Part shown: positions 14,402 to 58,302 of the stretch, one piece after another
Numbering within the stretch: position 1 is the stretch's first letter
How the letters are laid out: every line of letters starts with the position of its first letter
IMG/VR virus record: IMGVR_UViG_3300045988_162215
Strand: one strand, 5' to 3'
DNA from: a virus
DNA: 64,000 nt
Made by a program: the position numbers and the translations under genes
Notes under the pieces: model-generated
The model's database searches: none
Seen by the model: the letters and a program-made list of their open reading frames with translations, nothing else
Told to the model about the DNA's origin: nothing

Positions 14402-15391
14402 TTATTTATTTCCTTTTGTACTGTTGAAACCATAATTATAAGCATCATAAAGATTGATATAATATTTTTCTTTTTCATCAAGTTTTTCTCTTGGACATTC
14501 TTCTAATAATTCCCAAGAATAAGAATCTAATCCATATTCAAGCATATCTTTATAAAGTTTGTTTCCTTGCGGGGTGTCGATTCCGAGCCCGCATTTCGCG
14601 TGTTGCTTCCACCTAGAAGCCAGGTCTACGCTCTGACCAATATAGCACATATCTGTTTTTTGATTTGTGATTTTATAAATGCCTGTAACAATAGAGGTAC
14701 CTAGAACATTATTACATAATTCATTCATTCTTTTCTGATAAAAGGTTGACCAAATTAACATACTTAATACTCTAGGTTTATTTAATCGAGGTCGAATAGA
14801 TTCTAATGCTTGAATATCATTTTTTTCTGATTCTGGAATTGATAAACAATAGAAAGAAAGCTTCTCCTTTATCTCTTTTTCTTTAAGCGCGGCCGCGCGT
14901 GTGGCGTCCCTAGTTGACTTAATAGATGCTAGCTCATCCTGAACCCGCGACAACTCAGCTAAGCACTCTTTCTGTTGTTGTGAATATGATTCTTTTAAAA
15001 CTTCAATTCTTTTATCGTATTCTATTGTTTTCTTTTCATAATCATTATTAAGCAATTCAAAATATTGCTCAAAAGCTTTTTGAGATAATGCTTTTTGATT
15101 TGAAAAGGCTTTGTCTACTTTATCTTTTATATTTTCTAAACGATCTAGTGTTTCTTGTTCTTGTCTTTTAGAAGCAGTATTTAATGTTTCTAAATAATTA
15201 GCTTCTTCATTTAAGTTTAATAATTGTTTTTTTAATTCTTCGTTTTTACTTTCAATTATTCTATTTTCATTATCTGTTTTTTCATTTAATATATGTATAT
15301 TCTTATTATCTTTTTTTATTTTAATATAATTAAATAGAAGAATCAATAAGATAATTATTAAAATAAGAATAATATATATTATAAGTATCAA
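14402..15391 (-). CDS. GIY-YIG nuclease-domain protein with N-terminal transmembrane helix and long coiled coil
   Basis: N-terminal ILIIYIILILIIILLILLF. Central heptad-rich region. C-terminal GIYKITN...YIGQS...R..H GIY-YIG motif. Confidence 0.6.
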   Translation of the reverse strand: MILIIYIILILIIILLILLFNYIKIKKDNKNIHILNEKTDNENRIIESKNEELKKQLLNLNEEANYLETLNTASKRQEQETLDRLENIKDKVDKAFSNQKALSQKAFEQYFELLNNDYEKKTIEYDKRIEVLKESYSQQQKECLAELSRVQDELASIKSTRDATRAAALKEKEIKEKLSFYCLSIPESEKNDIQALESIRPRLNKPRVLSMLIWSTFYQKRMNELCNNVLGTSIVTGIYKITNQKTDMCYIGQSVDLASRWKQHAKCGLGIDTPQGNKLYKDMLEYGLDSYSWELLEECPREKLDEKEKYYINLYDAYNYGFNSTKGNK

Positions 15392-24535: not shown

Positions 24536-25804
24536 TTACATATTTTGTGCTAATTCAGCAATTCTTGAACGGTGAATTTTATTTAATGTTATTTCAGAAT
24601 AGAAAGGTTGTCCTTTAAATACTTCTGATACCCTTCTCATTCCATTATTAGCGCCTGCATATAGTGCAGAATCAACTTGAGCATTAGAATCTCCATCAAG
24701 AATACAAATACTATCTTCTCCAATTCTTTGGAGTGCGAGCCGCATTAGTTCGATATCAAGATTTTGTGCTTCTGTTATATAAATACCGGCATGCATTCCT
24801 GTGGTATCAAAACCTCGGATATCAGACATAGGTAACAAAAGAATATCTCCTTCTGCAAGAAGTTTCTCTACATAAACCCTATCTCCTATTTTACTATTTA
24901 AAAAGTTGCCGATTTGAGAATCCATTAACTTTTCATCTCTCGAGCCTGGATAAAAACCTAATTTAGCTGAACCTTTTGTTGCTACAGTGTTACAGAAAAT
25001 AATTATTTTATCAATAATTCCTCTTTCATATAAGTCAAATAAATAAGCAAATGAGAGATATGATTTACCACTTCCTGCGGGACCGCGTAACATACAAAGC
25101 TGGCTGTGCTGTAGTGCATCCAAAGCCGCGACCTGATATGGATCTTTTCCGGTTACTTTACCAAACTGTCTTGTATTTAAAACTGGGAAATTAAATTTTT
25201 GATATTTATTATCTCTATAAACAAAACTATCAATAATTTCATCATTATCATTAGTAATAAATAAATATTCATTTTCTAATAAATTATATTTATTATCTCC
25301 TAATGTATAAACTTTACTATAAAATTCTGCTAGTTCTTCTTCGGTCATTTGAATCTTCTCATAACCGCAATACTCTTCTTCCTCTTCTACGATAGTGTTG
25401 ACTGTTAAACCTTGAGAACTTGCTAATAAAGAACAGTTTAAATCTTTAGTAGAGAATACTAAAGTTTCGTCTTTTTCAAGATAATGTTCTTTAGCATAAC
25501 ATGCAGAACAAATAATTTTTAAATCATTATTGATTGGAATACCTGTTTTTAACGCCAATTTCTCTATTATGCTATTATAAAGAATTGCAACATATTTATC
25601 AGTTTTTTCTGATAAAAGGCGAGTTACTATTCTAGCTTGATACTTTATATCTTCGTCTTTATTACTTGAAGTTTTTATATTTTCTAATTCTTCAAGTGTA
25701 ATAGAGGAAATAAAAAATTTTTCATCTTTATTAAAGATATTTTTTGCATCGTGTAATAATGCACAAGTATCATAAAACATTACTGTGGTCTTAATAATAC
25801 TCAC
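24536..25804 (-). CDS. phoH: PhoH-like ATPase with N-terminal PIN domain (YlaK-like)
   Basis: N-terminal FYDTCALLHD (PIN). Walker A GPAGSGKSYLS. Confidence 0.75.
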   Translation of the reverse strand: MSIIKTTVMFYDTCALLHDAKNIFNKDEKFFISSITLEELENIKTSSNKDEDIKYQARIVTRLLSEKTDKYVAILYNSIIEKLALKTGIPINNDLKIICSACYAKEHYLEKDETLVFSTKDLNCSLLASSQGLTVNTIVEEEEEYCGYEKIQMTEEELAEFYSKVYTLGDNKYNLLENEYLFITNDNDEIIDSFVYRDNKYQKFNFPVLNTRQFGKVTGKDPYQVAALDALQHSQLCMLRGPAGSGKSYLSFAYLFDLYERGIIDKIIIFCNTVATKGSAKLGFYPGSRDEKLMDSQIGNFLNSKIGDRVYVEKLLAEGDILLLPMSDIRGFDTTGMHAGIYITEAQNLDIELMRLALQRIGEDSICILDGDSNAQVDSALYAGANNGMRRVSEVFKGQPFYSEITLNKIHRSRIAELAQNM

Positions 25805-36664: not shown

Positions 36665-36677
36665 ATTTTTGACTAGC

Positions 36678-36747
36678 AGCCCCCACGGGACTCGGACCCG
36701 CGATGTCGCAGTCAAAGTGCGATGTGTTACCAACTACACCAAGGGGC
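36678..36747 (-). tRNA. tRNA-Gln (anticodon TTG)
   Basis: Cloverleaf: D stem GTGT/ACAC. Anticodon stem TCGCA/TGCGA with loop CTTTGAC. T arm GCGGG-TCCGAGT-CCCGT. Confidence 0.6.
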
Positions 36748-36756
36748 ATCAAAATA

Positions 36757-49452: not shown

Positions 49453-51201
49453 TTAAAATTCCTCCTCATCTAATACAATTAAATTATTTAAAGCATTATA
49501 GACCGCGGAAGCCGCTATGGGATTATTAGACTCGGCTGAGAGCTCCTTATCAACAGCCGCGCTTAATATACCTTCATCAGTAATATTAAGATAATTTCCA
49601 ACTTTAATTCCACCTAAAATTTCATTTGTTGCTATTGGTATCTCAGATATACCAGTTCCTAGTTTGATGCCATAGATTTGATCAATATAGGTATCTGGTG
49701 GATTAGTTGTTTCAACATAATAGTCTATTTTAGTAAAATCATTATTTATTTTATAAACTAAATTTGTTTGTATATTTATACAAATATCTTCATTATTACC
49801 TTTTGCAGTTTGTAACGCTTCTACTGAATATACACAACTTACTTGATGAACTTTTTGTGAAGTTAAATTATATGTTGTAAATAAAACTAAATCATAATTT
49901 AGCATAGAAGTAGATAATGTAATTGTATCAGCTGGAGTGGTTTCCGTAAGATGATATAATAATTCTACTTTTCCAGTTGGTCCTCCTCCATTTGAAATAG
50001 TTTTATTTGTCCACTTGTTTAAAATTTCATCCCAAACAAGAGCCTGACTATTTTTTAAATCTACTAACTCAACATCTTTTAAGCTAGAAATCGCGGACGC
50101 CTGATCAGCCCAAGCCCAGCCCCCTTCGCCGTCAGCAGTTGGAACTTGATCGACAGTTGCAGTAGACGCATCTAAATCAGCTTTTATAATTTTTGAATTA
50201 TAAACTAAGTTTCCTGTATCTGGATCTTCGCCTAATTTTTCAAGTACGTCTTGATTTTCAAAAATATAACCAACTTGAGCATTTTTATATAAAAGTTCAC
50301 CCGCGGTTCCCTCGCTTAGTTCCTCCAGTACTCTAGAGTTTGAGAACGTTTGACCGACGTCCGCGTCTTTATAGGTAAGTTTTCCATCTAGATTTTCACC
50401 TAATTTATCAAGAATAGTTTTATTAGAAAAATGTTCTCCATTAACTTTAACTGTATTATAATATAAATTATTATCATTATCAGCAGAAATTTTATTTAAA
50501 ATATCTTTATTTTTAATATCATCATCATACATTAGTTTATTATCTTTATAAACTAATTTTCCGTCCAGTGATTCTGATAATTGTAATAAGATATCTTGAT
50601 TCATAAAAATAAAATCAATAAGAGTATTATCATAAGCCAATTTTCCATTTATAACAGACAATTTTTTTAAAATATCTTCATTATCAAAAGTAATAGATTT
50701 ATTATTAAAATATATATTTCCAGATGCATCAGAAGCAAACTTATCCAATACATCTTTATTATTAAATTCTTGCCCTTTAACTACTCTGCCATTATATACT
50801 AAATCATCATTTTCATTTGCTGATAATTTTTCAAGAATATTAGCATTATCAAAACTTTCAGCTTTACCATCTTTAAGAATTGCAGTATGTTTACCATTTT
50901 TATCTTGAATAACAATAGTAACAATACCTTGCTCTTCATCTCTAACCATCGCGGCAGTCGGTGAGTAACCCTCAGGACCTGTATCTCCTTGTGCGCCCTT
51001 AGGACCTTGCTCTCCATCTTCTACCTGCATCTCTGACGTCATCACAGTGCCATCCCGCATCTGCCACTCAAAGGTTACCGTATTAGTAGTTCCTTCTTTT
51101 GTTATACTTTTTATAGTACAAGGCGCGCCCGCAACAGAACCAGTTCCAGACATAGATTGCTCTGTAAATTTCTTGGCTAAATTAAGAGTATCTAAATCCA
51201 T
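49453..51201 (-). CDS. tail fibre with collagen-like Gly-X-Y stretch and eight tandem 22-aa repeats
   Basis: GEQGPKGAQGDTGPEG. Repeats D(I/V)L(E/D)KLSE..DGKL.Y....(V/I)..F.N. Confidence 0.55.
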   Translation of the reverse strand: MDLDTLNLAKKFTEQSMSGTGSVAGAPCTIKSITKEGTTNTVTFEWQMRDGTVMTSEMQVEDGEQGPKGAQGDTGPEGYSPTAAMVRDEEQGIVTIVIQDKNGKHTAILKDGKAESFDNANILEKLSANENDDLVYNGRVVKGQEFNNKDVLDKFASDASGNIYFNNKSITFDNEDILKKLSVINGKLAYDNTLIDFIFMNQDILLQLSESLDGKLVYKDNKLMYDDDIKNKDILNKISADNDNNLYYNTVKVNGEHFSNKTILDKLGENLDGKLTYKDADVGQTFSNSRVLEELSEGTAGELLYKNAQVGYIFENQDVLEKLGEDPDTGNLVYNSKIIKADLDASTATVDQVPTADGEGGWAWADQASAISSLKDVELVDLKNSQALVWDEILNKWTNKTISNGGGPTGKVELLYHLTETTPADTITLSTSMLNYDLVLFTTYNLTSQKVHQVSCVYSVEALQTAKGNNEDICINIQTNLVYKINNDFTKIDYYVETTNPPDTYIDQIYGIKLGTGISEIPIATNEILGGIKVGNYLNITDEGILSAAVDKELSAESNNPIAASAVYNALNNLIVLDEEEF

Positions 51202-51370
51202 TCCTTTACCTCCTTTATTTCAAATTCTTCTAAGTAAATATGAAAATTAGGGACATAAAAATATAGGTAATTACCCAAACCTATTTTTGGATTAAAAAAG
51301 TTCAAACATCCATTTTGGTTCAGGTGTACGAGTGTCTGCGCTCCGAGCAGATTCTGCACTCTTGTTATCT

Positions 51371-51408
51371 AAATAAAAAAAATGGAGTTTCTTAGTCAAA
51401 GAAACTCC
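51371..51408 (-). terminator. intrinsic terminator closing the tRNA array
   Basis: GGAGTTTCTT-TGACT-AAGAAACTCC plus ATTTTTTTTATTT. Confidence 0.6.
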
Positions 51409-51436
51409 ATAATAGTAAAACGGCTTGTTCAAGAAA

Positions 51437-51510
51437 TTGAGGAGGAGAGACTCGGACTCTCGGTCTTTCGCGTATCAGACGAATGCTTTAACCATCTAAG
51501 CTACTCCTCA
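51437..51510 (-). tRNA. tRNA-Ile (anticodon GAT)
   Basis: Acceptor TGAGGAG/CTCCTCA. Anticodon stem TTCGT/GCGAA with loop CTGATAC. T arm GAGAG-TCCGAGT-CTCTC. Confidence 0.55.
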
Positions 51511-51511
51511 G

Positions 51512-51573
51512 CGCTGCACACAGGATTCGAACCTGCAAAGCCTTTCAGCTCCCTCACCACCCGGACATACAGC
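51512..51573 (-). pseudogene. degenerate tRNA-like element (62 nt; intact T arm and acceptor, defective D and anticodon arms)
   Basis: T arm GCAGG-TTCGAAT-CCTGT and acceptor GCTGTAT/GTGCAGC. Anticodon region GGAGC-TGAAAG-GCTTT has a 6-nt loop. Confidence 0.4.
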
Positions 51574-52356
51574 ATACATTTTAGAATTAAAAATTTTATT
51601 TTAATTTCCTTACTTAACGCCTAGACATTGTTAAGGGGTCTGCGTTGCCGCACCATCTTCCTTTATTTCCTCATTCCATAAAAATAAAATTTTAATTCTT
51701 CAACTCGGTACTTTTCATCTCAACTTCTAATTTGCCTAGATAGTAACCGATAATTCTTATTAAGACCTGAGATAGTCGATCAAATATTTTAATCTAAAAC
51801 CGGCAATAGTTAAAAGATTAAGTCCGTTATAGTTACGAACCCACAACTCGAAATTTCATTTCCTACCTCTTATTAGCGTGGGTGGGCGTCGCCGCACATA
51901 AAGTTATGTTTAATGGAAACTTTATGTTATAAACCATATAATATGGAACTGCATTGGGTGTAAGTTATCCTACTTTAGACTCTTACTCGACTCAAGGTCA
52001 ACGCCATTCTTCATGGATGCTTTTGCAGCGGCTCTCGTCGCTATATTCCATATACTACACTTATTTTTAGCAGTAGTCGCATAGCTTTCTTTTATAGTCT
52101 GTTTGGCTGCCGACTTTCTATCGCGTTTTTGTTCGCATCACCCTGGGTACTGATAGACATTTCGCGCTCCCATTGAACCAGCTTTGAATTTAAGACCTAC
52201 ACTGTGTGGCGAGATCTATGGTCTTTAGTTTATTCAACTAATGAGCGTTATGCACTCTGCTCTCGCTTTTCAGTCTTATTTATATCTAACGGGCTTCCTG
52301 CACCTAACAGGATAATTAAGTAGGAGATCTTTTAGACTAACACCCGTTAGAAATAA

Positions 52357-52439
52357 CGCCAGCACTAGGATTCGAACCTAGATATCCAGATGGATAGAAA
52401 ACTTAGCAAGTTTCTGCGATGCCCTTACGCCATACTGGC
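52357..52439 (-). tRNA. tRNA-Ser (anticodon GCT), type II with long variable arm
   Basis: Acceptor GCCAGTA/TGCTGGC. Anticodon loop TTGCTAA. Variable hairpin ATCCA-TCT-GGAT. T arm CTAGG-TTCGAAT-CCTAG. Confidence 0.7.
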
Positions 52440-52443
52440 AAGA

Positions 52444-52516
52444 AGCCCGTAACGGGAATCGAACCCGTATCAACTGCTTGGAAGGCAGCTATGCTAGCCG
52501 TTACACCACACGGACA
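52444..52516 (-). tRNA. tRNA-Gly (anticodon TCC)
   Basis: Acceptor GTCCGTG/TACGGGC. Anticodon stem GCTGC/GCAGT with loop CTTCCAA. T arm ACGGG-TTCGATT-CCCGT. Confidence 0.65.
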
Positions 52517-52520
52517 TAAA

Positions 52521-52566
52521 TCTGGGCAGTAGGATTCGAACCTACAACGTCTTGCGTGCCTTAGCA
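52521..52566 (-). pseudogene. orphan tRNA 3' fragment (T arm GTAGG-TTCGAAT-CCTAC plus acceptor 3' strand TGCCCAG-A) immediately downstream of ORF 52568..53002
   Basis: No complementary CTGGGCA 5' strand or D/anticodon arms found upstream. Confidence 0.45.
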
Positions 52567-52567
52567 A

Positions 52568-53002
52568 TCATAATGTAGATAGAATATCTTCGGCTTTAAA
52601 ATCTTTAGCCTGCTTTTGTGTAGAAAGTCTTGTGCCAACAGTCCAAAATTTTGTCTCATAAGTTCCAAATACAGGGAACATATAAAACTTTCCATTGAAC
52701 TCTGTCATAAAATAGTCCACATCTTCAGTAGAGTAAGTTACTTTTTTTGTTTTTCCATTGTCACGCACTTCATATTTAGTACGAACAAGGAAGCCTGTTT
52801 CATCTACTGGCATAGCGTGTTTTACTTGTATCTTGTAAAACTTTCCGTTTTTTTCAATTACTAAGTCATACTTTTGATGATTTCCGATTGGAATAAGAAC
52901 ATTCCAGCCTTGTTCAATCAAATATACCTGACATTTTAATTCTGTAATATCTCCAATTTGAGATGGATTAAGGTTTTCCAATACTATCAATCCTTTCTCC
53001 AA
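52568..53002 (-). CDS. PD-(D/E)xK-like nuclease-fold protein inserted in tRNA array (paralog of 54716..55129), candidate homing endonuclease
   Basis: Shared QIG.I.E...L.EQGW.V..PI.....YDLV.EK.GKFY..Q.K with the paralog. D...EK.GK resembles a PD-(D/E)xK core. Confidence 0.4.
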   Translation of the reverse strand: MEKGLIVLENLNPSQIGDITELKCQVYLIEQGWNVLIPIGNHQKYDLVIEKNGKFYKIQVKHAMPVDETGFLVRTKYEVRDNGKTKKVTYSTEDVDYFMTEFNGKFYMFPVFGTYETKFWTVGTRLSTQKQAKDFKAEDILSTL

Positions 53003-53068
53003 AGATATTCTTTATGAATTTCCAAGACAAGCAAGCGTTTATCCTAGCTGAGTTAAACCAGCTAAAAA

Positions 53069-53142
53069 TGGACATGGGGAGAATCGAACTCCAAACACCC
53101 TTGTGGGTTCTCCACGGTGACGGCATCCAGCACTACATGCCC
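53069..53142 (-). ncRNA. tRNA-like gene with non-canonical anticodon loop (identity unresolved)
   Basis: Acceptor GGGCATG/CATGTCC, D stem GTG/CAC, T arm GGAG-TTCGATT-CTCC. Anticodon region GTGG-AGAAC-CCAC gives a 5-nt loop. Confidence 0.35.
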
Positions 53143-53146
53143 ATAA

Positions 53147-53219
53147 TGTGCCTAGAGGGGCTCGAACCCTCGACTCTCAAATTAAAAGTTTGATACTCTG
53201 CCAGCTGAGTTATAGGCAC
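53147..53219 (-). tRNA. tRNA-Lys (anticodon TTT)
   Basis: Acceptor GTGCCTA/TAGGCAC. Anticodon stem TCAAA/TTTGA with loop CTTTTAA. T arm GAGGG-TTCGAGC-CCCTC. Confidence 0.7.
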
Positions 53220-53443
53220 TTAATTTGGCATTGGATAGCTTATCTTCCCCGGCTATCAACGGCGAGTTATTTATAGTCTACTCTTAGACTAAGTGATGCC
53301 AACTCACTTTTCTTATAGACACATAAGCGTGATTTCAGTACCGACTTCCATCTGAAATTCATACTCTTTCTGCTACGCACCGCTATTGCGTTAACACAGA
53401 TACCCTTTGTTTAATTAGCGATTTTATTCTCGTCGGAGTTTAA

Positions 53444-53515
53444 TTCTTCAGGTTAGATTTGAACTAACAGCTTTGGTTCTGTAAACCAATGTTTTATCCA
53501 TTAAACTACTGAAAA
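53444..53515 (-). tRNA. tRNA with anticodon ACA (Cys-decoding position; unusual A34)
   Basis: D stem GTTT/AAAC. Anticodon stem TTGGT/ACCAA with loop TTACAGA. T arm GTTAG-TTCAAAT-CTAAC. AT-rich acceptor TTTTCAG/CTGAAGA. Confidence 0.45.
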
Positions 53516-53815
53516 TTATTTACAATATTTATCTATAAATGAATCACAACCAAGATCGCAACAAAGCTTATCTAATTCTTTTGTTGGCATTGACTGAAAT
53601 TCATCTTTAATTACATAAACATCCCAACAACAGCTTTCCAAAAGTTCTTCGTCACTAATATCATCAAAACAATCATATGATTCAGTAACCTCTAGAGCCA
53701 TGTCAAGTCCAATTTCATCTGCTTCTGCTAATGTACTAACATCATAAACAGCTAATGTGTTAATACCATGCATTCCACCGTATGTACTTTCATAAGCATA
53801 AATAAAAACCTTCAT
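53516..53815 (-). CDS. acidic Cys-rich hypothetical protein
   Basis: ORF with promoter cassette 53849-53877 upstream. Confidence 0.35.
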   Translation of the reverse strand: MKVFIYAYESTYGGMHGINTLAVYDVSTLAEADEIGLDMALEVTESYDCFDDISDEELLESCCWDVYVIKDEFQSMPTKELDKLCCDLGCDSFIDKYCK

Positions 53816-53848
53816 ATAATTATCAGCCCTTTCTTTAACTTTCTATAA

Positions 53849-53877
53849 TAATTATATCAAAAATTTTATTATTTTTC
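53849..53877 (-). promoter_or_regulatory. promoter TTGAAA-N17-TGATATAAT plus RBS cassette
   Basis: Upstream of 53516..53815 and the downstream tRNA. Confidence 0.55.
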
Positions 53878-53879
53878 AA

Positions 53880-53950
53880 ATATGTGCATTAGGATTCGAA
53901 CCTAAACAAAAAGCTCCAAATGCTTTCGTGCTACCATTACACCATACACA
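53880..53950 (-). tRNA. tRNA-Gln (anticodon TTG), second copy
   Basis: Acceptor ATGTGTA/TGCACAT, D stem GTG/CAC. Anticodon stem AAAGC/GCTTT with loop ATTTGGA. T arm TTAGG-TTCGAAT-CCTAA. Confidence 0.55.
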
Positions 53951-54082
53951 TCTTCAATTATTATATAATTGAATAAATTTAATTTAACGCGCGTTCTGTA
54001 TATTAGGTCATTACATTAAAGCAGTTCTATGGTTGAACTTTTACCAGAATGGGATTCCAAACCCTCGACTTTCTTGTAATGA

Positions 54083-54153
54083 AGCATGAAGTTGGAGTCG
54101 AACCAACCTATGAGGTTTTGCAGACCTCCTCCTAGCCGCCCGGACCTCCATGC
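54083..54153 (-). tRNA. tRNA-Cys (anticodon GCA)
   Basis: Acceptor GCATGGA/TTCATGC. Anticodon stem GAGGT/ACCTC with loop CTGCAAA. T arm GTTGG-TTCGACT-CCAAC. Confidence 0.65.
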
Positions 54154-54231
54154 AAAATATAAACTAGACACTAATATTTAATAATTGATTTGTCTTTTAA
54201 TTCTTTAATATTATAGCTGTATGTATCTAAA

Positions 54232-54303
54232 TACTCCCGACAGGATTTGAACCTGCATAGCGTGCCTTAGAAGGACACTGCCTATCCATTAGGCTACGGA
54301 AGC
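54232..54303 (-). tRNA. tRNA-Arg (anticodon TCT)
   Basis: Acceptor GCTTCCG/CGGGAGT, D arm GCC-TAATGGATA-GGC. Anticodon stem GTGTC/GGCAC with loop CTTCTAA. T arm GCAGG-TTCAAAT-CCTGT. Confidence 0.65.
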
Positions 54304-54307
54304 AAAA

Positions 54308-54380
54308 TACGGGTGGTGAGATTCGAACCCACACTTGACGAGGCTTAAACTCGTTGTCTCTGCCGTTGGACTACACCCGC
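54308..54380 (-). tRNA. tRNA-Leu (anticodon TAA) with atypically short variable region
   Basis: Acceptor GCGGGTG/CACCCGT. Anticodon stem ACGAG/CTCGT with loop TTTAAGC. T arm GTGGG-TTCGAAT-CTCAC. Variable region only 5 nt. Confidence 0.5.
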
Positions 54381-54668
54381 TTATCAGGCTAGCTGCAGTG
54401 GTATCGAGGAATTGCACCCCGGTTTCCTCTTTATAAGGAAGGCGACTTATCTAGTTAGTCGAATACCCTAGCCTATAAAAATGGCAGTCCACTCTTCTGC
54501 CGATTTAATGAGTTTCTTGCTTCTCCTGCGCAAGGCTTAATTAAATGCTTTATTCTAGGTGTTGTCGCGACACGTCACTAGAAAGAGTGTTATAATAAAA
54601 CTAAGCACATAAAATTTTTAGATTTACAATCCAAACCATCTTCTTTAAAATTGCTGTTTGTGCTTAAA

Positions 54669-54743
54669 TGGGCGGAGAGGGAATCGAACCCACTCGGGAC
54701 ATAAAGCCTTCGGTTTTATTCCTCGTCCGAGATTTGAACTCGG
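54669..54743 (-). pseudogene. two tandem tRNA 3' fragments (T arm plus acceptor 3' strands) at the 3' end of ORF 54716..55129
   Basis: CCGAG-TTCAAAT-CTCGG-ACGAGGA (overlaps the ORF's last codons) and GTGGG-TTCGATT-CCCTC-TCCGCCC-A. Confidence 0.5.
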
Positions 54744-55129
54744 TATTTATATGTTTGAAACCCTTGATTATTTGCATTTGGCTCTGTTCTTAATCTTATA
54801 GATTTTCGATTTTGCTGAATATCTTTTATTGGTATTAGCCACATATTCAAATCTTTGTTTACACAAAATAAATAATCAAGCTCAGAATGGTTTAAAAGAT
54901 TATCATAAACACCGCCATTTGTACCTCCAGTGGAACGAAAATCAATATCTCCATTTTCAGTTTGAGTAGCCTTACATTGGACAGTATAAAATTTTCCATC
55001 TTTTTCAACCACTAAATCATACCACTGAGTGTCATTTATTGGAAGAGATATTGTATATCCTTGACAAGTGAAATAATTTATTGCCATACTTAAACCAATT
55101 CTTCCAATTTGTTTTCTGTTAGTTTTCAA
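54716..55129 (-). CDS. PD-(D/E)xK-like nuclease-fold protein (TTG start) inserted between halves of a tRNA-like gene
   Basis: Paralog of 52568..53002. RBS AAAGGAG. Flanked by complementary acceptor strands GGGCGGG (upstream) and TCCGCCC-A (downstream). Confidence 0.45.
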   Translation of the reverse strand: MKTNRKQIGRIGLSMAINYFTCQGYTISLPINDTQWYDLVVEKDGKFYTVQCKATQTENGDIDFRSTGGTNGGVYDNLLNHSELDYLFCVNKDLNMWLIPIKDIQQNRKSIRLRTEPNANNQGFQTYKYRVQISDEE

Positions 55130-55149
55130 AATTATATAAAAACTCCTTT

Positions 55150-55191
55150 CGAGACCAGACCGATGTGTCTACCTTATCACGCTACCCGCCC
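55150..55191 (-). other. tRNA 5' half (acceptor GGGCGGG, D-like arm, start of anticodon region) transcribed from promoter 55214-55242
   Basis: GGGCGGGTAGCGTGATAAGGTAGACACATCGG.... Its acceptor strand is complementary to the 3' fragment at 54669-54676, about 480 nt downstream. Confidence 0.45.
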
Positions 55192-55213
55192 TTAATTTTT
55201 ACTTTCTATAAAT

Positions 55214-55242
55214 ATTATATCAAAAATATTTATGAAAATCAA
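55214..55242 (-). promoter_or_regulatory. promoter TTGATT-N17-TGATATAAT
   Basis: Drives the tRNA 5' half plus PD-(D/E)xK ORF transcript. Confidence 0.55.
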
Positions 55243-55244
55243 TT

Positions 55245-55284
55245 TGATATTTAAAGCGGCAACCGGTTTGAGATCTCAAACCGG
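55245..55284 (-). terminator. palindromic hairpin (possible terminator) between tRNA-Met and promoter 55214-55242
   Basis: CCGGTTTGAGATCTCAAACCGG perfect palindrome flanked by GC-rich arms. Moderately U-rich tail. Confidence 0.35.
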
Positions 55285-55383
55285 GCAACCGCGTTGCAAA
55301 GAAAGGTTTTATATGAACCAAGTTTTTTAACAGAACTTGGAAAACTGGGAAAGGAAGGAAGGTCAATCATGAATCTGACCTAA

Positions 55384-55454
55384 TGGCGGAAGCAGGACTC
55401 GAACCTGCGTCTCTAGCCTATGAAGCTAGCAAGGAGCCACTCCTCTATTCCGCG
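55384..55454 (-). tRNA. tRNA-Met/Ile2 (anticodon CAT; C1xC72 mismatch suggests possible initiator type)
   Basis: Acceptor CGCGGAA/TTCCGCC. Anticodon stem CTAGC/GCTAG with loop TTCATAG. T arm GCAGG-TTCGAGT-CCTGC. Confidence 0.6.
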
Positions 55455-56115
55455 ATATTATCATTTACTAATTTAATATTCTCAATAAAAACAAAATAAA
55501 ATAGTTCTTCAACTTACTAAACATATCTTCAAAATTATTACTCTACATAGGAGATAAAGGCTGAGCAAGGCTAGCTAATTCCTTACTTCTTTACCCCAGC
55601 ATAATTGCCATGTCTATGACAGGATTGATTACCTATACCTTTCACTTAAACCATTCAGCATATATAATTTTATAAAAAATTCTTCATTCTTTAATCTTTT
55701 AATGAAATTAAATATCTGCACTTTGCATTAAGCTACTTAGAGTTGCATACAGTTCTTATATCAACATTTCTGTTGTTTCATTGCAAAACGGATTATTGGT
55801 ATTTCCTAGGATTGACTTTGAGTACCACCTCGCCGCCCTAACTAGGAGAGGAAAGCATTTCTGCTAACTTTCTATTGCTCCGCCGAACCGCGTCCTGAGC
55901 TATTTTGCGATATATCTAGTGCCATGACTTTACTTTGGGTTTCCAACCTCTTCATTTCAGTATCACTACTTTCAATGCGGACCACTATCCACAAGTATCC
56001 TTGTTTCGTTCGTGCCGAGCTCTTTTCGCCATGCCTTAGCTGTGTGGTTAGCACATCTACACTAAGATATTCATTTTGTTTTTATTCAGAATATTAAATT
56101 TTCAATGAACATAAA

Positions 56116-56188
56116 TGCTGCCCCTAGGAGTCGAACCCAGTGTCATCGGATATAAGCCGATTCCCCAAAACCGTCGAGGACAAGCAGC
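56116..56188 (-). tRNA. tRNA-Ile (anticodon TAT, AUA-decoding)
   Basis: Acceptor GCTGCTT/GGGCAGC. Anticodon stem ATCGG/CCGAT with loop CTTATAT. T arm CTGGG-TTCGACT-CCTAG. Confidence 0.5.
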
Positions 56189-56579
56189 TAGTTGCATTAC
56201 TGCTCCATTACGCGCACCTGTCTACGCAACTTCCGCACTACGCCTGGACACTTGATATTCTTAGGATTTTCTTCAAGTGTTGCCAATCTATTCTTTAAAA
56301 TTGCTAATTTCTGTTCTCTTGTCATAATATCCAATCCCTTTCTATTGTTATATAATAGATCCAATCCTGCTGGTTATTAGCAAGTAAACATCGTTCACAA
56401 ACCAGCTGGATCTATACCACATTTTAGACAGTAGCCGCCTGTACGCTTCACCACTCACGTACCTAGGAGAATTTCTGCATTTTGCTTTCAATCTAACAAA
56501 ACAACTCTAAAACTAAAACAACTTTACTTACTGTTTAAGTTGAATCAGAGGCTAATTTGATTAACTTGCATATAAGTAG

Positions 56580-56655
56580 TGATCCCGGCGGGACTTGAAC
56601 CCAAGCGCATCTCGACCTTGAAAGGGTCGAATCCTAGCCTTTAGAAGACGGGACC
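56580..56655 (-). tRNA. tRNA-Glu (anticodon TTC)
   Basis: Acceptor GGTCCCG/CGGGATC, D stem TTCT/AGGA. Anticodon stem CGACC/GGTCG with loop CTTTCAA. T loop TTCAAGT. Confidence 0.55.
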
Positions 56656-56658
56656 AGA

Positions 56659-56731
56659 TGACTCCAGATAGATTTGAACTATCATCCCCTGACTGAGAAT
56701 CAGGAATCCTGAACCATTAGACGATGGAGCC
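56659..56731 (-). tRNA. tRNA-Glu (anticodon CTC)
   Basis: Acceptor GGCTCCA/TGGAGTC. Anticodon stem CCTGA/TCAGG with loop TTCTCAG. T arm GATAG-TTCAAAT-CTATC. Confidence 0.55.
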
Positions 56732-56857
56732 TTGAATTAGGAATTTTGGCAAGATTCCTTTAACTTGGAGCCCTTATCATCCTCGAACCCTAGGAGGTTT
56801 TGTTACTTTTTATTAACGAGAGTTAGAACAAATTTTCCTTTCGCAGTTTCTCTCAAA

Positions 56858-56930
56858 TGGATTGTATTGGTGTCGAACCAATTCCTCTTGGGCTTCAACC
56901 AAGCGCTTCTACCGAGTTAGCTTACAATCC
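56858..56930 (-). tRNA. tRNA-Phe (anticodon GAA)
   Basis: Perfect acceptor GGATTGT/ACAATCC. Anticodon stem CTTGG/CCAAG with loop TTGAAGC. T arm ATTGG-TTCGACA-CCAAT. Confidence 0.7.
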
Positions 56931-56979
56931 TTTCTAAAGTGACTAAAGTCGCCTTCCATAATTACATCTCCTTTTCATT

Positions 56980-57008
56980 TACTATAATAATTATATCAAA
57001 AATTTTTA
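56980..57008 (-). promoter_or_regulatory. promoter TTGATT-N17-TGATATAAT plus RBS cassette
   Basis: Upstream of tRNA-Phe, tRNA-Glu and further tRNAs. Confidence 0.55.
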
Positions 57009-57186
57009 TGAAAATCAATTAAATTGCTTTTTGTCTATGTATTCAAGAAGCATAACTTGGATACATAAGGTGAGCTAGTACGTCAACTCCACACATCTCA
57101 ATCTAACGGCATATCTTAGACATCTTTATTCATCATTTCGTATGATAGGAGTGAGGGAAAGCTATACTCGACAATCTCTCCTATAA

Positions 57187-57260
57187 CGTCTTGATATTTA
57201 TCCCCTCAAGCGGGTGAGGCGACATCGAAAGATTCGAACTTTCAACCTTCCTTCCATACG
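57187..57260 (-). pseudogene. degenerate tRNA-like element (canonical T arm GAAAG-TTCGAAT-CTTTC, acceptor pairs, no anticodon arm)
   Basis: CGGCATT...GATGTCG acceptor with wobble pairs. The central region cannot form a 5-bp stem and 7-nt loop. Confidence 0.3.
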
Positions 57261-57413
57261 GACGGTTATGCTTCCTTTTACACCAATGCCGCAAATGTAC
57301 TTATTGCAGTAAGTACACCGAGTTATTTTGGCTTTTTCGTATAATATACTGCAATATATCATTGACTAATATCAACCAAACAAGTCCTTCGACTAGTACT
57401 CCGCACGCAGACC

Positions 57414-57485
57414 TTAATTCGGTCCGGAGGGAATCGAACCCTCATAATCTTCTCTTATAACTCTACCAAACTCCTCGTCGTTGGC
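57414..57485 (-). pseudogene. degenerate tRNA-like element (T arm GAGGG-TTCGATT-CCCTC, acceptor TGGTCTG/CGGACCG, no foldable anticodon arm)
   Basis: As described. The anticodon region TAGAG-TTATAAG-AGAAG does not pair. Confidence 0.3.
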
Positions 57486-57619
57486 AGACCACACTTGCTT
57501 TACACCAGAGGTTTAGTGATGCCCCTCTATCATCAATGGCTAACTTTGTTTTTTACACCGGAAGGTTCCGCCGCACCCACCATCAACACTCATTAACAGC
57601 GAAGTTCACCTAGAGTAAA

Positions 57620-57692
57620 CTCCCACAACAGGGCTCGAACCTGTGACCCACGGTTTAACAGACCGTTGCTCTACCAACTGAGCTATATGGGA
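57620..57692 (-). tRNA. tRNA-Asn (anticodon GTT)
   Basis: Canonical D arm GCTC-AGTTGGTA-GAGC. Anticodon stem ACGGT/ACCGT with loop CTGTTAA. T arm ACAGG-TTCGAGC-CCTGT. Acceptor TCCCATA/TGTGGGA. Confidence 0.75.
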
Positions 57693-57916
57693 ATATTAAA
57701 GAGAGCAACCACGAAGGGATAGTCTAGGAAGATTTCACGCTCTCACGCGATAATTATTTCTCAGATTTTTTATATTGCGATCACTGAGAAATGAACAAAT
57801 TATCAACGATTTTTTCTCGCCCACTAAAAAGACCGCGATTTATTACTACAACTTATTGTCGCTTTTGCCCAGATAGGTTAGTAAGTTGCAACTACGTACG
57901 CCCTATCAAACGTTAA

Positions 57917-57988
57917 TTCCGATTATGTGAATCGAACACATATTACCGGGTTACAAAGCCGGGGTTCTAGCCTTTGAACTAAATCGGA
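57917..57988 (-). tRNA. tRNA-Thr (anticodon TGT)
   Basis: Perfect acceptor TCCGATT/AATCGGA, D arm GTTC-AAAGGCTA-GAAC. Anticodon stem CCGGC/CCCGG with loop TTTGTAA. T arm ATGTG-TTCGATT-CACAT. Confidence 0.65.
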
Positions 57989-58005
57989 TTATTTTCTCTA
58001 TAATT

Positions 58006-58034
58006 ATTATATCATAAATTTTTTATTTTTTCAA
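58006..58034 (-). promoter_or_regulatory. promoter TTGAAA-N17-TGATATAAT
   Basis: Upstream of tRNA-Thr, at the start of the tRNA array. Confidence 0.55.
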
Positions 58035-58099
58035 GTAGGTATTTTATTATCAAAAAACTTTTATTTTCTTTAATAACTCTTTACCAACTTTCTATAATA

Positions 58100-58128
58100 A
58101 TTATATCAAAAATTTTATTATTTTTCAA
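58100..58128 (-). promoter_or_regulatory. promoter TTGAAA-N17-TGATATAAT (tandem with 58006-58034)
   Basis: Second copy about 95 bp upstream of the first. Also carries the RBS cassette. Confidence 0.5.
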
Positions 58129-58134
58129 ATGATT

Positions 58135-58302
58135 TTATTTTGCTCCAATAGAGCCATCTTTATATAAGCGATATGTTAAAATGTCTCCGCCTATACAACC
58201 TACAATTTCAATGTAGTCTGGAGTAAGATGCCTTTCAATCTCATAATCAAAGCGATTAAGAGAAAATTCATTTGCATGAACTCTTAACTCTGCATCTGTC
58301 AT
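58135..58302 (-). CDS. small hypothetical protein (55 aa)
   Basis: Strong RBS ggaggt. ATGA overlap with the stop of the upstream gene. MTDAELRVHANEFSLNRFDYEIER.... Confidence 0.35.
   Translation of the reverse strand: MTDAELRVHANEFSLNRFDYEIERHLTPDYIEIVGCIGGDILTYRLYKDGSIGAK

Follow-up and report, generated by a model that had tools for sequence, protein, structure and literature searches.

An endonuclease cassette with tRNA-like ends splits a tRNA-Tyr gene in the tRNA island of an uncultivated phage

Here we examined a 64,000-nucleotide stretch of viral DNA (IMG/VR record IMGVR_UViG_3300045988_162215; the whole of this stretch is called the window below), in which the interval 51437-57988 carries an island of tRNA and other non-coding RNA genes and, within it, a tRNA-Tyr gene that is split in its anticodon loop by an endonuclease-encoding cassette. 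A preliminary description of the same DNA had taken the interval for a co-oriented phage tRNA array with 17 foldable tRNAs, 16 of which it named. ARAGORN returned these 16 genes, all on the minus strand and with a single anticodon conflict (at 54231-54304), which supports the reading as a co-oriented array. The seventeenth tRNA is real as well, but it is the split tRNA-Tyr(GTA), which that description had not seen, just as it had overlooked a ROOL RNA, two endonuclease open reading frames (ORFs), two further ORFs of small size and a number of degenerate pieces that resemble tRNAs. The parts of the split gene and its cassette are the following.

55156..55191, minus strand: tRNA-Tyr(GTA) exon 1, last base G34 (intron-mode ARAGORN, ortholog alignment, in-silico splice)
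54719..55155, minus strand: mobile cassette of 437 nt (PDDEXK_5 ORF and minihelix ends)
55155-55149, minus strand: 5' acceptor-like strand of the cassette (minihelix)
55148-55143, minus strand: ribosome-binding site of the cassette
55129-54716, minus strand: cassette PDDEXK_5 ORF, encoding a 137-aa enzyme (PF11645, E=2e-18)
54743-54727, minus strand: T-arm-like hairpin of the cassette (minihelix)
54726-54720, minus strand: 3' acceptor-like strand of the cassette, followed by the discriminator A at 54719 (minihelix)
54669..54718, minus strand: tRNA-Tyr(GTA) exon 2, first base U35 (ortholog alignment, in-silico splice)

When introns were allowed at default stringency, the ARAGORN call spanning 55191..54669 was a class II tRNA that contains a 437-nt insert. 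The relatives used for comparison were two IMG/VR contigs (L001-L003) and the metagenome contig L143, whose islands are 92-96% identical; intact tRNA-Tyr(GTA) orthologs are present in L002 and L003, and their alignment gives one unique junction, between G34 and U35. Removal of the insert in silico yielded an 86-nt Tyr(GTA), again at default ARAGORN stringency. The program's reading of the split gene as Ser(GGA) was rejected in favour of Tyr(GTA) on the basis of the intact orthologs and of A73, and ARAGORN found no other tRNA-Tyr in the 64-kb window. The cassette is compact: only 26 of its 437 nt lie outside the ORF, and U35-A36-A37 of the tRNA also serve as the TAA stop codon of that ORF. A profile built from both endonucleases of the window matched PDB entry 2OST (E=5.9e-16). 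This entry is I-Ssp6803I, a homing endonuclease that belongs to the group I intron interrupting the anticodon loop of Synechocystis tRNA-fMet. In an Rfam scan of 51200-58300 (E<=1) the tRNA clan and ROOL were the sole RNA families matched on the transcribed strand, with no intron family among the matches, and ten loci of the cassette family scanned at the Rfam gathering score contained only tRNA, ROOL and one transfer-messenger RNA (tmRNA). The cassette is without a ribozyme.

The same arrangement recurs elsewhere. An IMG/VR scan with the endonuclease alignment returned 80 loci, in 15 of which the ORF lies inside a split tRNA call made by intron-mode ARAGORN (at least two of those calls being clearly spurious), and in about 20 more the ORF directly adjoins an intact tRNA-Tyr. 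Further members were fetched from metagenomes by means of the DNA motif at the 3' end of the cassette, bringing its distribution to at least 14 metagenome lineages and one contig binned with a Muribaculaceae genome. All the resolved members share a common layout, in which exon 1 ends in C-U-G34 and is followed immediately by G1' and six more nucleotides, the ribosome-binding site and the ORF. On the 3' side come a T-arm-like hairpin (5 bp, loop TTCAAWT), seven nucleotides, the discriminator, an optional CCA and then exon 2, beginning U35-A-A-A. The discriminator is A, except in L100, where it is U; in L031 the junction falls one base later.

The first seven nucleotides of the cassette pair with the seven that precede the discriminator, some 430 nt away. 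The resulting minihelix has a conserved G1:C72 pair and a conserved U2.G71 wobble, with covariation at positions 3-7. Among 12 members, 93.8% of the minihelix cells are paired, against 74% in shuffles, none of 500 of which reached that value, and 22-45% when the register was slid, and compensatory changes are seen in 9 of the 12 minihelix pairs. Conservation of the U2.G71 wobble argues for pairing in RNA and not for inverted or terminal repeats of the DNA. In 6 of the 11 precursors of ~520 nt, unconstrained minimum free energy (MFE) folding recovered between 5 and 7 of the 7 long-range pairs. Of 12 members spliced in silico, 11 gave a Tyr(GTA) at default stringency, from very different tRNA-Tyr backgrounds; the twelfth, L117, failed in a run that used a mis-set junction. 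Furthermore, the minihelix carries CCA where the tRNA-Tyr gene hosting it encodes CCA and lacks it where that gene lacks it, an agreement that holds for all 13 distinct members, 6 of which have CCA and 7 of which do not. These alignments show that the ends of the cassette RNA mimic the acceptor/T-arm minihelix of a tRNA and abut both exon junctions without a spare nucleotide.

A second insert of related coding content lies further along the island.

52521..53052, minus strand: second cassette, in a degenerate Asp-like tRNA (insert and PDDEXK_5 ORF)

The insert itself has 468 nt (53025-52558) and sits in the GTC loop (TTGTC/insert/AC). Its PDDEXK_5 ORF, at 53002-52568 (PF11645, E=6e-23), is about 30% identical to the endonuclease of the Tyr cassette. 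Both PDDEXK_5 ORFs of the window lie within tRNA anticodon loops, and neither has the free-standing layout. A homologous insert in L003 splits an otherwise perfect tRNA-Asp(GTC). The Asp-like tRNA of the window has a degenerate 5' half, and its spliced form shows no D-arm and two acceptor mismatches; the locus 53143-52516 is absent from L143, L002 and L003. The second cassette looks like a decaying insertion.

Two side observations concern contigs of this endonuclease family. The split-Tyr contig L137 has a tmRNA at 1503-1850 (RF00023, 82 bits). Two T5-like phages, Chester and SelmaRatti, also have PDDEXK_5 homologs in their tRNA arrays, and in Vibrio phage Chester (L004 1477-1934) a 72-nt "tRNA-Tyr" annotated in GenBank overlaps gp100, the PDDEXK_5 gene, at its 3' end. 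This 72-nt gene receives no ARAGORN call and may be another interrupted, or a mis-annotated, tRNA-Tyr in a cultured T5-like phage.

In the mechanism that we propose, the island would be transcribed on the minus strand from five promoter copies, the transcripts ending at an intrinsic terminator and probably also at one internal stop, and host RNase P together with 3'-processing enzymes would cut them into 16 tRNAs and the ROOL RNA. At the split gene, RNase P would cut before G1', which is the junction of exon 1 and cassette, and RNase Z, or a CCA-type 3' pathway, would cut at the junction of cassette and exon 2. RNase Z cleaves 3' of the discriminator in precursors that lack CCA, and because it cuts there its cut would coincide with the cassette/exon 2 junction in the CCA-less members; E. 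coli RNase BN/Z cuts after CCA in precursors that contain it, which would suit the CCA-bearing members. The two cuts would free an endonuclease mRNA shaped like a tRNA and leave tRNA-Tyr in two halves, exon 1 with a 3'-OH and exon 2 with a 5'-phosphate, held together by the tRNA's own stems. A phage RNA ligase might reseal these halves, and the window encodes a candidate.

28083..29306, minus strand: RNA ligase, candidate for rejoining the tRNA halves (PF09414, E=1.3e-20, and N-terminal OB domain, PF21189)

Its best relative of solved structure is the Naegleria gruberi RNA ligase (PDB 5COT, E=6.6e-28), an enzyme that seals nicks between 3'-OH and 5'-phosphate ends. Homologs were found in at least 101 IMG/VR contigs, and the contig of L006, which has a split Tyr gene, also encodes one.

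We give a probability of about 0.75 to the reading in which the interval is a tRNA and non-coding RNA island in a large, uncultivated tailed phage of AT-rich DNA (~31% GC), the odd tRNAs of the island have the origins set out below, and the minihelix undergoes tRNA-type processing. This figure spans the three parts jointly and excludes religation. Processing of the minihelix as a tRNA by RNase P and RNase Z is likely, judging from the alignments. Religation of the tRNA-Tyr halves seems doubtful to us, and it is only tentatively that we put forward the whole scheme, in which the cassette would be a tRNA intron of a third kind, one that lacks a ribozyme, occurs in viruses of bacteria and is excised to the nucleotide by host RNase P and RNase Z, the anticodon loop then being resealed at G34-U35 by a Naegleria-like phage ligase.

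Several points weigh against this proposal. All its RNA-level steps are inferred from sequence, and the window's own minihelix is the weakest of the family, with 5 of 7 acceptor pairs and a G1.A72 mismatch, and does not appear in the MFE fold. A precise cut right after CCA, as the CCA-bearing minihelices would need, departs from the standard bacterial 3' pathway. The Asp cassette shows neither T-arm nor minihelix, just 4-5 bp of terminal pairing by eye, and its copy in the window interrupts a tRNA that has decayed. Throughout the phage group the ligase is common, and it occurs also in a relative with an intact tRNA-Tyr, so that its presence is not specific to splicing and its co-occurrence with split genes is uninformative as a test. 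The same cassette was found in tRNA-Tyr genes with different acceptor stems (L128 vs L132), and the exons of one member, L135, are degenerate. Because the cassette moves between alleles, intact exons may reflect recent homing and not selection for splicing, and exon integrity is thus not decisive as proof of splicing. Finally, it is the codon usage of the phage, and not that of a host, on which the argument from codon supply is based.

In a rival explanation the cassette simply kills tRNA-Tyr: a selfish endonuclease gene would have homed into a dispensable phage tRNA gene, the minihelix would serve the cassette alone, through release, stability or translation of its mRNA within a tRNA precursor, and the tRNA-Tyr of the host would cover TAT and TAC. 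We consider the chances of this explanation to be even. With a cassette that shifts between alleles (L128 vs L132) intact exons need no selection, the exons of L135 have in fact decayed, and the ligase is not confined to split-Tyr phages. In the window, moreover, the island tolerates tRNAs that are dead (Ser(TGA) with its deletion, the remnant of an Asp-like tRNA and the degenerate elements TL1-TL3 listed below), and relatives of the endonuclease are often free-standing beside an intact tRNA-Tyr (~20 loci) or in T5-like tRNA arrays. What inactivation leaves unexplained is why in every member the ends of the cassette match position 1 and the discriminator (or CCA) of the minihelix to the nucleotide. 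Loss of tRNA-Tyr would also fall on a phage that uses TAT at 43.8 per 1000 codons and has no further tRNA-Tyr in the 64-kb window, and endonuclease genes that persist within genes normally come with a splicing device, as in group I introns and inteins (PMC3943268).

Whichever fate the tRNA has, the cassette would be of interest. Should tRNA-processing enzymes excise it and the halves be rejoined, there would be a protein-dependent route of tRNA splicing in bacteria and their viruses, added to group I self-splicing and to the endonuclease-ligase splicing of archaea and eukaryotes; phage RNA ligases would gain a role beyond the repair of nuclease damage, and the selfish element would be phenotypically silent. 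Even if the tRNA is merely killed, the cassette would show that a selfish gene can be expressed within a tRNA operon by a route that is new.

The remaining features of the island, in the order of transcription, and the lone tRNA outside it are as follows.

58100..58128, minus strand: promoter copy 1, TTGAAA-17-TGnTATAAT (11/12 matches and extended -10)
58006..58034, minus strand: promoter copy 2 (motif scan, extended -10; shared with distant phage contigs)
57917..57988, minus strand: tRNA-Thr(TGT) (ARAGORN; Rfam 59.5 bits)
57619..57693, minus strand: tRNA-Asn(GTT) (ARAGORN; Rfam 70.1 bits)
57420..57511, minus strand: TL1, degenerate tRNA-like element with T-arm and acceptor-like 3' strand (relaxed ARAGORN only; in L143 and L003, deleted in L002)
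57218..57291, minus strand: TL2, degenerate tRNA-like element with acceptor, D-arm, T-arm and aberrant anticodon region (relaxed ARAGORN)
56990..57018, minus strand: promoter copy 3 (near-identical copy by scan)
56858..56930, minus strand: tRNA-Phe(GAA), one of two alleles at the locus (ARAGORN, Rfam, allele alignment)
56659..56731, minus strand: tRNA-Glu(CTC) (ARAGORN, Rfam)
56579..56655, minus strand: tRNA-Glu(TTC) (ARAGORN; Rfam 38.9 bits; cloverleaf drawing)
56197..56364, minus strand: 55-aa ORF (ORF call; sequence MTREQKLAILKNRLATLEENPKNIKCPGVVRKLRRQVRVMEQ; same peptide in L003), upstream of Ile(TAT) and ROOL
56116..56188, minus strand: tRNA-Ile(TAT) (ARAGORN, cloverleaf; below the Rfam gathering score)
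55483..56090, minus strand: ROOL RNA, full length (RF03087, 274.3 bits against a gathering score of 99.1, model 1-574 of 574)
55383..55455, minus strand: tRNA(CAT) with 1:72 mismatch and A11:U24 (ARAGORN, Rfam; near-identical in L002 and L003)
55254..55381, minus strand: two hairpins, putative internal terminator or processing site (stem 55381-55360; folding z)
55214..55242, minus strand: promoter copy 4 (near-identical copy by scan)
54397..54469, minus strand: TL3, degenerate tRNA-like element with UAU loop (Rfam 28.9 bits against a gathering score of 29)
54308..54380, minus strand: tRNA(TAA), class I form with 5-nt variable loop (covariance model)
54231..54304, minus strand: tRNA-Arg(TCT) (covariance-model register and stem covariation)
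54083..54153, minus strand: tRNA-Cys(GCA), U73 (ARAGORN, cloverleaf)
53881..53951, minus strand: tRNA-Gln(TTG) (ARAGORN, covariance model; ortholog of relatives with UUUUAAA-type loop)
53851..53879, minus strand: promoter copy 5, TTGAAA-17-TATAAT with extended -10
53516..53815, minus strand: 99-aa ORF between Gln(TTG) and the ACA tRNA, with its own copy of the island promoter
53444..53515, minus strand: tRNA(ACA), Arg(ACG)-type body with G36A and C32U (Rfam 60.7 bits)
53147..53219, minus strand: tRNA-Lys(TTT) (ARAGORN, Rfam)
53068..53143, minus strand: B1, tRNA-like element with acceptor, T-arm and aberrant anticodon arm (relaxed ARAGORN; weak match to Rfam tmRNA ends)
52444..52515, minus strand: tRNA-Gly(TCC) (ARAGORN, Rfam)
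52356..52440, minus strand: tRNA-Ser(GCT) (ARAGORN, Rfam)
51518..51592, minus strand: tRNA-Ser(TGA) remnant (alignment with the intact Ser(TGA) of L002 and L003)
51437..51510, minus strand: tRNA-Ile(GAT) (ARAGORN, Rfam)
51372..51410, minus strand: intrinsic terminator at the end of the island, a 12-bp stem (51410-51382) followed by a T-run, TTTTTTTATT
36676..36748, minus strand: lone tRNA-Gln(TTG), outside the island (ARAGORN, Rfam)

The island is ordinary biology for a large phage. It has the clustering that defines a phage tRNA island, with 16 co-oriented tRNA genes in 6.5 kb on one strand and phage proteins alongside, and the tRNAs sum to about 1.2 kb, or ~18% of the interval. Fourteen of the 16 score above the gathering threshold of Rfam RF00005; Ile(TAT) and Cys(GCA), called by ARAGORN only, fall below it and both draw as clean cloverleaves. 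The 16 anticodons listed in the preliminary description all proved correct by ARAGORN and Rfam, including Arg(TCT), for which the covariance model decides and ARAGORN gives CTA, and the extra Gln tRNA that it had placed at 36678, outside the array, is the tRNA-Gln(TTG) of 36676-36748.

Among the proteins encoded in the window are tail proteins, a topoisomerase II, an endolysin, helicases, and DNA and RNA ligases. ORFs of at least 120 aa read with genetic code 11 on the minus strand span ~75% of the window, and 44 ORFs end in TAA (30), TAG (9) or TGA (5); stop codons are not recoded in this phage DNA. Third codon positions are 0.44 T and 0.34 A (78% A/T), with TAT among the phage's most used codons, and the anticodon set is suited to A/T-ending codons as had been claimed; the tRNAs would mainly supply the A/U-ending codons of the phage. 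Comparison of the island with GenBank phages by megablast and blastn gave isolated tRNAs only and no other DNA similarity, and the topoisomerase reached ~40% identity at most by tblastn, no GenBank phage being close. Elsewhere in the window a protein at 24536-25804 (minus strand) fuses PIN and PhoH, and a 329-aa protein at 14402-15391 (minus strand) has a C-terminal GIY-YIG nuclease domain and may be a further homing endonuclease.

The preliminary description had placed tandem promoters at 58100 and 58006, further promoters inside the array and one strong terminator at its end. A promoter scan bore out the tandem pair, whose motif is shared with distant phages, and also the internal copies at 57018-56990, 55242-55214 and 53879-53851. 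Set against ~250 loci of other phages, the spacers of the island had matches at these five promoter sites only, and the TTGAAA-17-TATAAT motif is the conserved, sigma-70-type promoter of this phage group. The terminator closing the array is present (12-bp stem 51410-51382 and T-run), but it is probably not the only one, for the two hairpins at 55381-55254 are likely to form a second, internal stop. Such a stop is proposed because the MFE z of these hairpins is about -4 on both strands and because they adjoin the 55242 promoter on its upstream side. The remaining spacers, about 3 kb, were unremarkable as structured RNAs (folding z -2.3 to +1), and only the promoters in them are shared with distant loci.

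The ROOL RNA lies between Ile(TAT) and the CAT tRNA, and in L002, L003 and L143 its orthologs occupy the same place with scores of 273-275 bits. Location of ROOL close to phage tRNA islands is a known association (PMC12286853, PMC5737381), and assembly into a homo-oligomeric nanocage is reported for this RNA family (PMC12286853). Full-length, far above threshold and within a phage tRNA island, the copy of the window agrees with the family as described in both reports, and we detected no difference from it. An 831-aa ORF at 30702-33197 (minus strand) contains a Vault_3 repeat as well as the shoulder domain of Major Vault Protein (PF11978, E=6e-22); near it is a 489-aa DUF7788 and DUF2828 protein (34508-35977, minus strand), just past which stands the lone tRNA-Gln. 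The presence of a protein like Major Vault Protein and a cage-forming RNA in one phage is curious. Of the two small ORFs, that of 55 aa (56197-56364) had no Pfam match and that of 99 aa (53516-53815) no Pfam or PHROG match; the segment with the 99-aa ORF is unmatched in L002 and L003 and lies inside a stretch aligned to L143.

Comparison among the relatives points to an island in rapid flux, which would be driven at least partly by homing endonucleases. At 92-96% identity, tRNA alleles have been swapped whole, tRNA genes deleted or truncated and anticodons altered. Two alleles each occur at the Phe and "Leu(TAA)" loci, in a mosaic distribution, and His, Asp and a second CAT tRNA are found in some relatives only. 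The Ser(TGA) remnant has lost its anticodon stem-loop through a 20-nt deletion between GAGCTGA repeats. TL1 and TL2 are tRNA remnants, the latter receiving no ARAGORN call at default settings in L001-L003 or L143; TL3 is 99% conserved in the relatives, where it scores 32.3 bits, and B1 has no homolog in any fetched locus. Two altered anticodons stand apart from the window's own set. In L143, which is 96% identical, the tRNA-Phe at 911-981 is an L003-type allele whose anticodon has become AAA by G34A, giving the lineage a second A34 tRNA, and the ortholog of the window's Gln(TTG) has a changed anticodon region, AGUUUUAAA, in L002 (17375-17445) and L003 (17283-17353). ARAGORN labels the tRNA of the relatives "Stop(TTA)"; we do not claim an ochre suppressor, since ARAGORN's UUA stands against UUU with an A.A mismatch in the covariance model and the register is ambiguous.

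Most of the unusual anticodons have mundane origins in this fast-evolving island, that of the ACA tRNA among them. This tRNA is 89% identical to the tRNA-Arg(ACG) of the relatives, from whose loop it differs by C32U and G36A (CUACGGA to UUACAGA), and its T-stem changes are compensated. An identical copy in L143, an independent contig, rules out a sequencing error, and a distant contig, L166, has an independent ACA tRNA with an Arg(ACG)-type body and the loop CUACAAA. By alignment, the ACA tRNA is the ortholog of the relatives' Arg(ACG) with G36A, and it would be a mutated Arg tRNA of uncertain activity whose recurrence leaves room for a function. The A34 noted previously is confirmed by the covariance-model alignment. 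Its suggested modification to inosine is unlikely, because the editing sites of bacterial TadA keep G36, with a core UACG or UAMG (PMC11472039), and here position 36 is A. Charging by arginyl-tRNA synthetase is likewise uncertain: the determinants of tRNA-Arg are A20, C35, G/U36 and A/G73 (PMC9976931), of which the ACA tRNA keeps A73, C35 and, by eye, A20, with A in place of G or U at 36. The tRNA most likely keeps an unmodified A34 and would be either poorly charged or a weak reader of UGU, the only codon that an ACA anticodon reads, weakly, in E. coli in vivo (PMC11066159). A Cys-type identity was rejected, given that A73 and A34 stand against the U73 and G34-C35-A36 required for tRNA-Cys (PMC9976931), U73 being found in the neighbouring GCA tRNA.

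An adaptive explanation, in which the tRNA decodes as ICA and reads UGU, UGC and UGA as Arg (opal suppression), or evades or acts as a decoy for a host nuclease that targets tRNA-Arg(ICG), appears improbable to us. Its attraction lies in the fact that two distant Arg(ACG)-type bodies (window/L143 and L166) acquired G36A independently, that the compensated T-stem keeps the fold, that the Arg determinants A73, C35 and probably A20 remain (PMC9976931) and that another body of the type has a UUA-like loop in L009. It meets the TadA requirement for G36 (PMC11472039), the weak reading of UGU alone by unmodified ACA (PMC11066159), the harm that Arg at Cys codons would do and the clear decay of other island tRNAs, and there is no sign of a need for UGA read-through, as the listed ORFs are intact under code 11 and five end in TGA. 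The tRNA of L009 (3332-3406) has the same Arg(ACG)-type body as the ACA tRNA of L166 and a UUUUAAG loop, and this tRNA family seems prone to anticodon change. The recurrent change from Arg(ACG) to ACA is also a natural source of A34 tRNAs, probably ones in which A34 is left unmodified. To our knowledge such tRNAs are otherwise extremely rare.

The preliminary description had also singled out the TAA and CAT tRNAs as non-canonical. The short variable arm of the TAA tRNA is real, with a 5-nt loop by covariance model, and this form, common to L003, lacks the long arm that marks tRNA-Leu as class II; L002 and L143 have at the same locus a long-arm allele with the same acceptor and T arms. Since the leucyl-tRNA synthetase of E. 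coli needs A73 and core tertiary contacts and can dispense with the variable arm (PMC9976931), leucylation of the short-arm form is possible by analogy. The CAT tRNA was said to be initiator-like, and two of the three hallmarks are there, a 1:72 mismatch and A11:U24. The mismatch is C1 x C72 in the Rfam register (55454-55384), the ARAGORN register placing it at 2:71. The third hallmark is missing, for the anticodon stem, CUAGC/GCUAG, does not have the three G:C pairs at 29-31:39-41.

Two further readings fare worse. A conventional self-splicing group I intron, such as the one that encodes I-Ssp6803I in the anticodon loop of cyanobacterial tRNA-fMet, would account for the shared endonuclease family (PF11645, 2OST) and for the choice, once more, of a tRNA anticodon loop; the absence of a detectable ribozyme core or intron family in the scans described above, the mere 26 of 437 nt outside the ORF, and borders that have G and not U at the end of the 5' exon and A and not G at the end of the insert effectively refute it. 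An amber-suppressor tRNA (CUA, "Pyl") at 54231-54304 with recoding of TAG, as ARAGORN's CTA call would have it, has hardly any probability left and is the weakest reading of all, because the covariance model places UCU in the loop CUUCUAA with high posterior probability, the long ORFs are intact under code 11 with 9 of 44 ending in TAG, and the orthologs keep the loop unchanged over a covarying anticodon stem (GTGTC/GGCAC vs AGGTC/GACTT), from which register and covariation it follows that the anticodon is UCU and that ARAGORN slipped one base. Other endonuclease-bearing phage contigs (L009, L031, L034, L036, L039, L059, L061, L062 and L117) do carry tRNAs with a CUCUAAA loop (CUA, the register read from sequence), and amber suppression or TAG recoding is likely in those.

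What is new in this locus is the endonuclease cassette bounded by a minihelix in tRNA-Tyr; in the literature we found no described equivalent, such absence being no proof of novelty. Free-standing homing endonucleases are familiar from phage tRNA clusters, for example SegB of T4 and the F-Tfl enzymes of T5. The island resembles the clusters of T4, of T5-like Demerecviridae and of other large phages in its co-oriented tRNAs, in the small ORFs and endonuclease genes among them and in anticodons that fit the codons of the phage, and differs from them in that an endonuclease gene lies inside a tRNA gene and not between genes, and in having no GenBank DNA similarity beyond single tRNAs. With the group I intron of Synechocystis tRNA-fMet and its I-Ssp6803I the cassette shares the endonuclease family and the anticodon-loop DNA of a tRNA gene as target, but in place of a ribozyme core and of U(-1) and omega-G it has 26 non-coding nucleotides and tRNA-like minihelix ends.

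Archaeal introns of the bulge-helix-bulge type can carry ORFs for homing endonucleases, such as the rRNA introns with LAGLIDADG enzymes. If the splicing that we propose is right, the cassette would be like them a ribozyme-free insert that is spliced by proteins, comprises little beyond an endonuclease ORF and has ends that form a helix. However, by inspection its junctions face an internal loop of about 3 x 5 nt, between the anticodon stem and the 7-bp acceptor-like stem, and not a 3-4-3 bulge-helix-bulge; the host is bacterial, and no EndA-type splicing endonuclease was found among the 30 ORFs scanned in the 64-kb window, the contigs of relatives measuring 122-140 kb (tRNA introns are reviewed in PMC4090602). 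The cassette also recalls tmRNA, in which the 5' and 3' ends pair as an acceptor stem beside a T-arm with an ORF between them. It differs in having C:G, U:A or U.G at 3:70 and no G3.U70, in encoding a 137-aa enzyme and in lying inside another tRNA, and it has no match to the Rfam tmRNA model (RF00023). At the 3' end of MALAT1, mascRNA is a tRNA-like element processed by RNase P and RNase Z, and the cassette would resemble it in that a tRNA-like module sets the ends of an RNA by way of the tRNA-processing enzymes.

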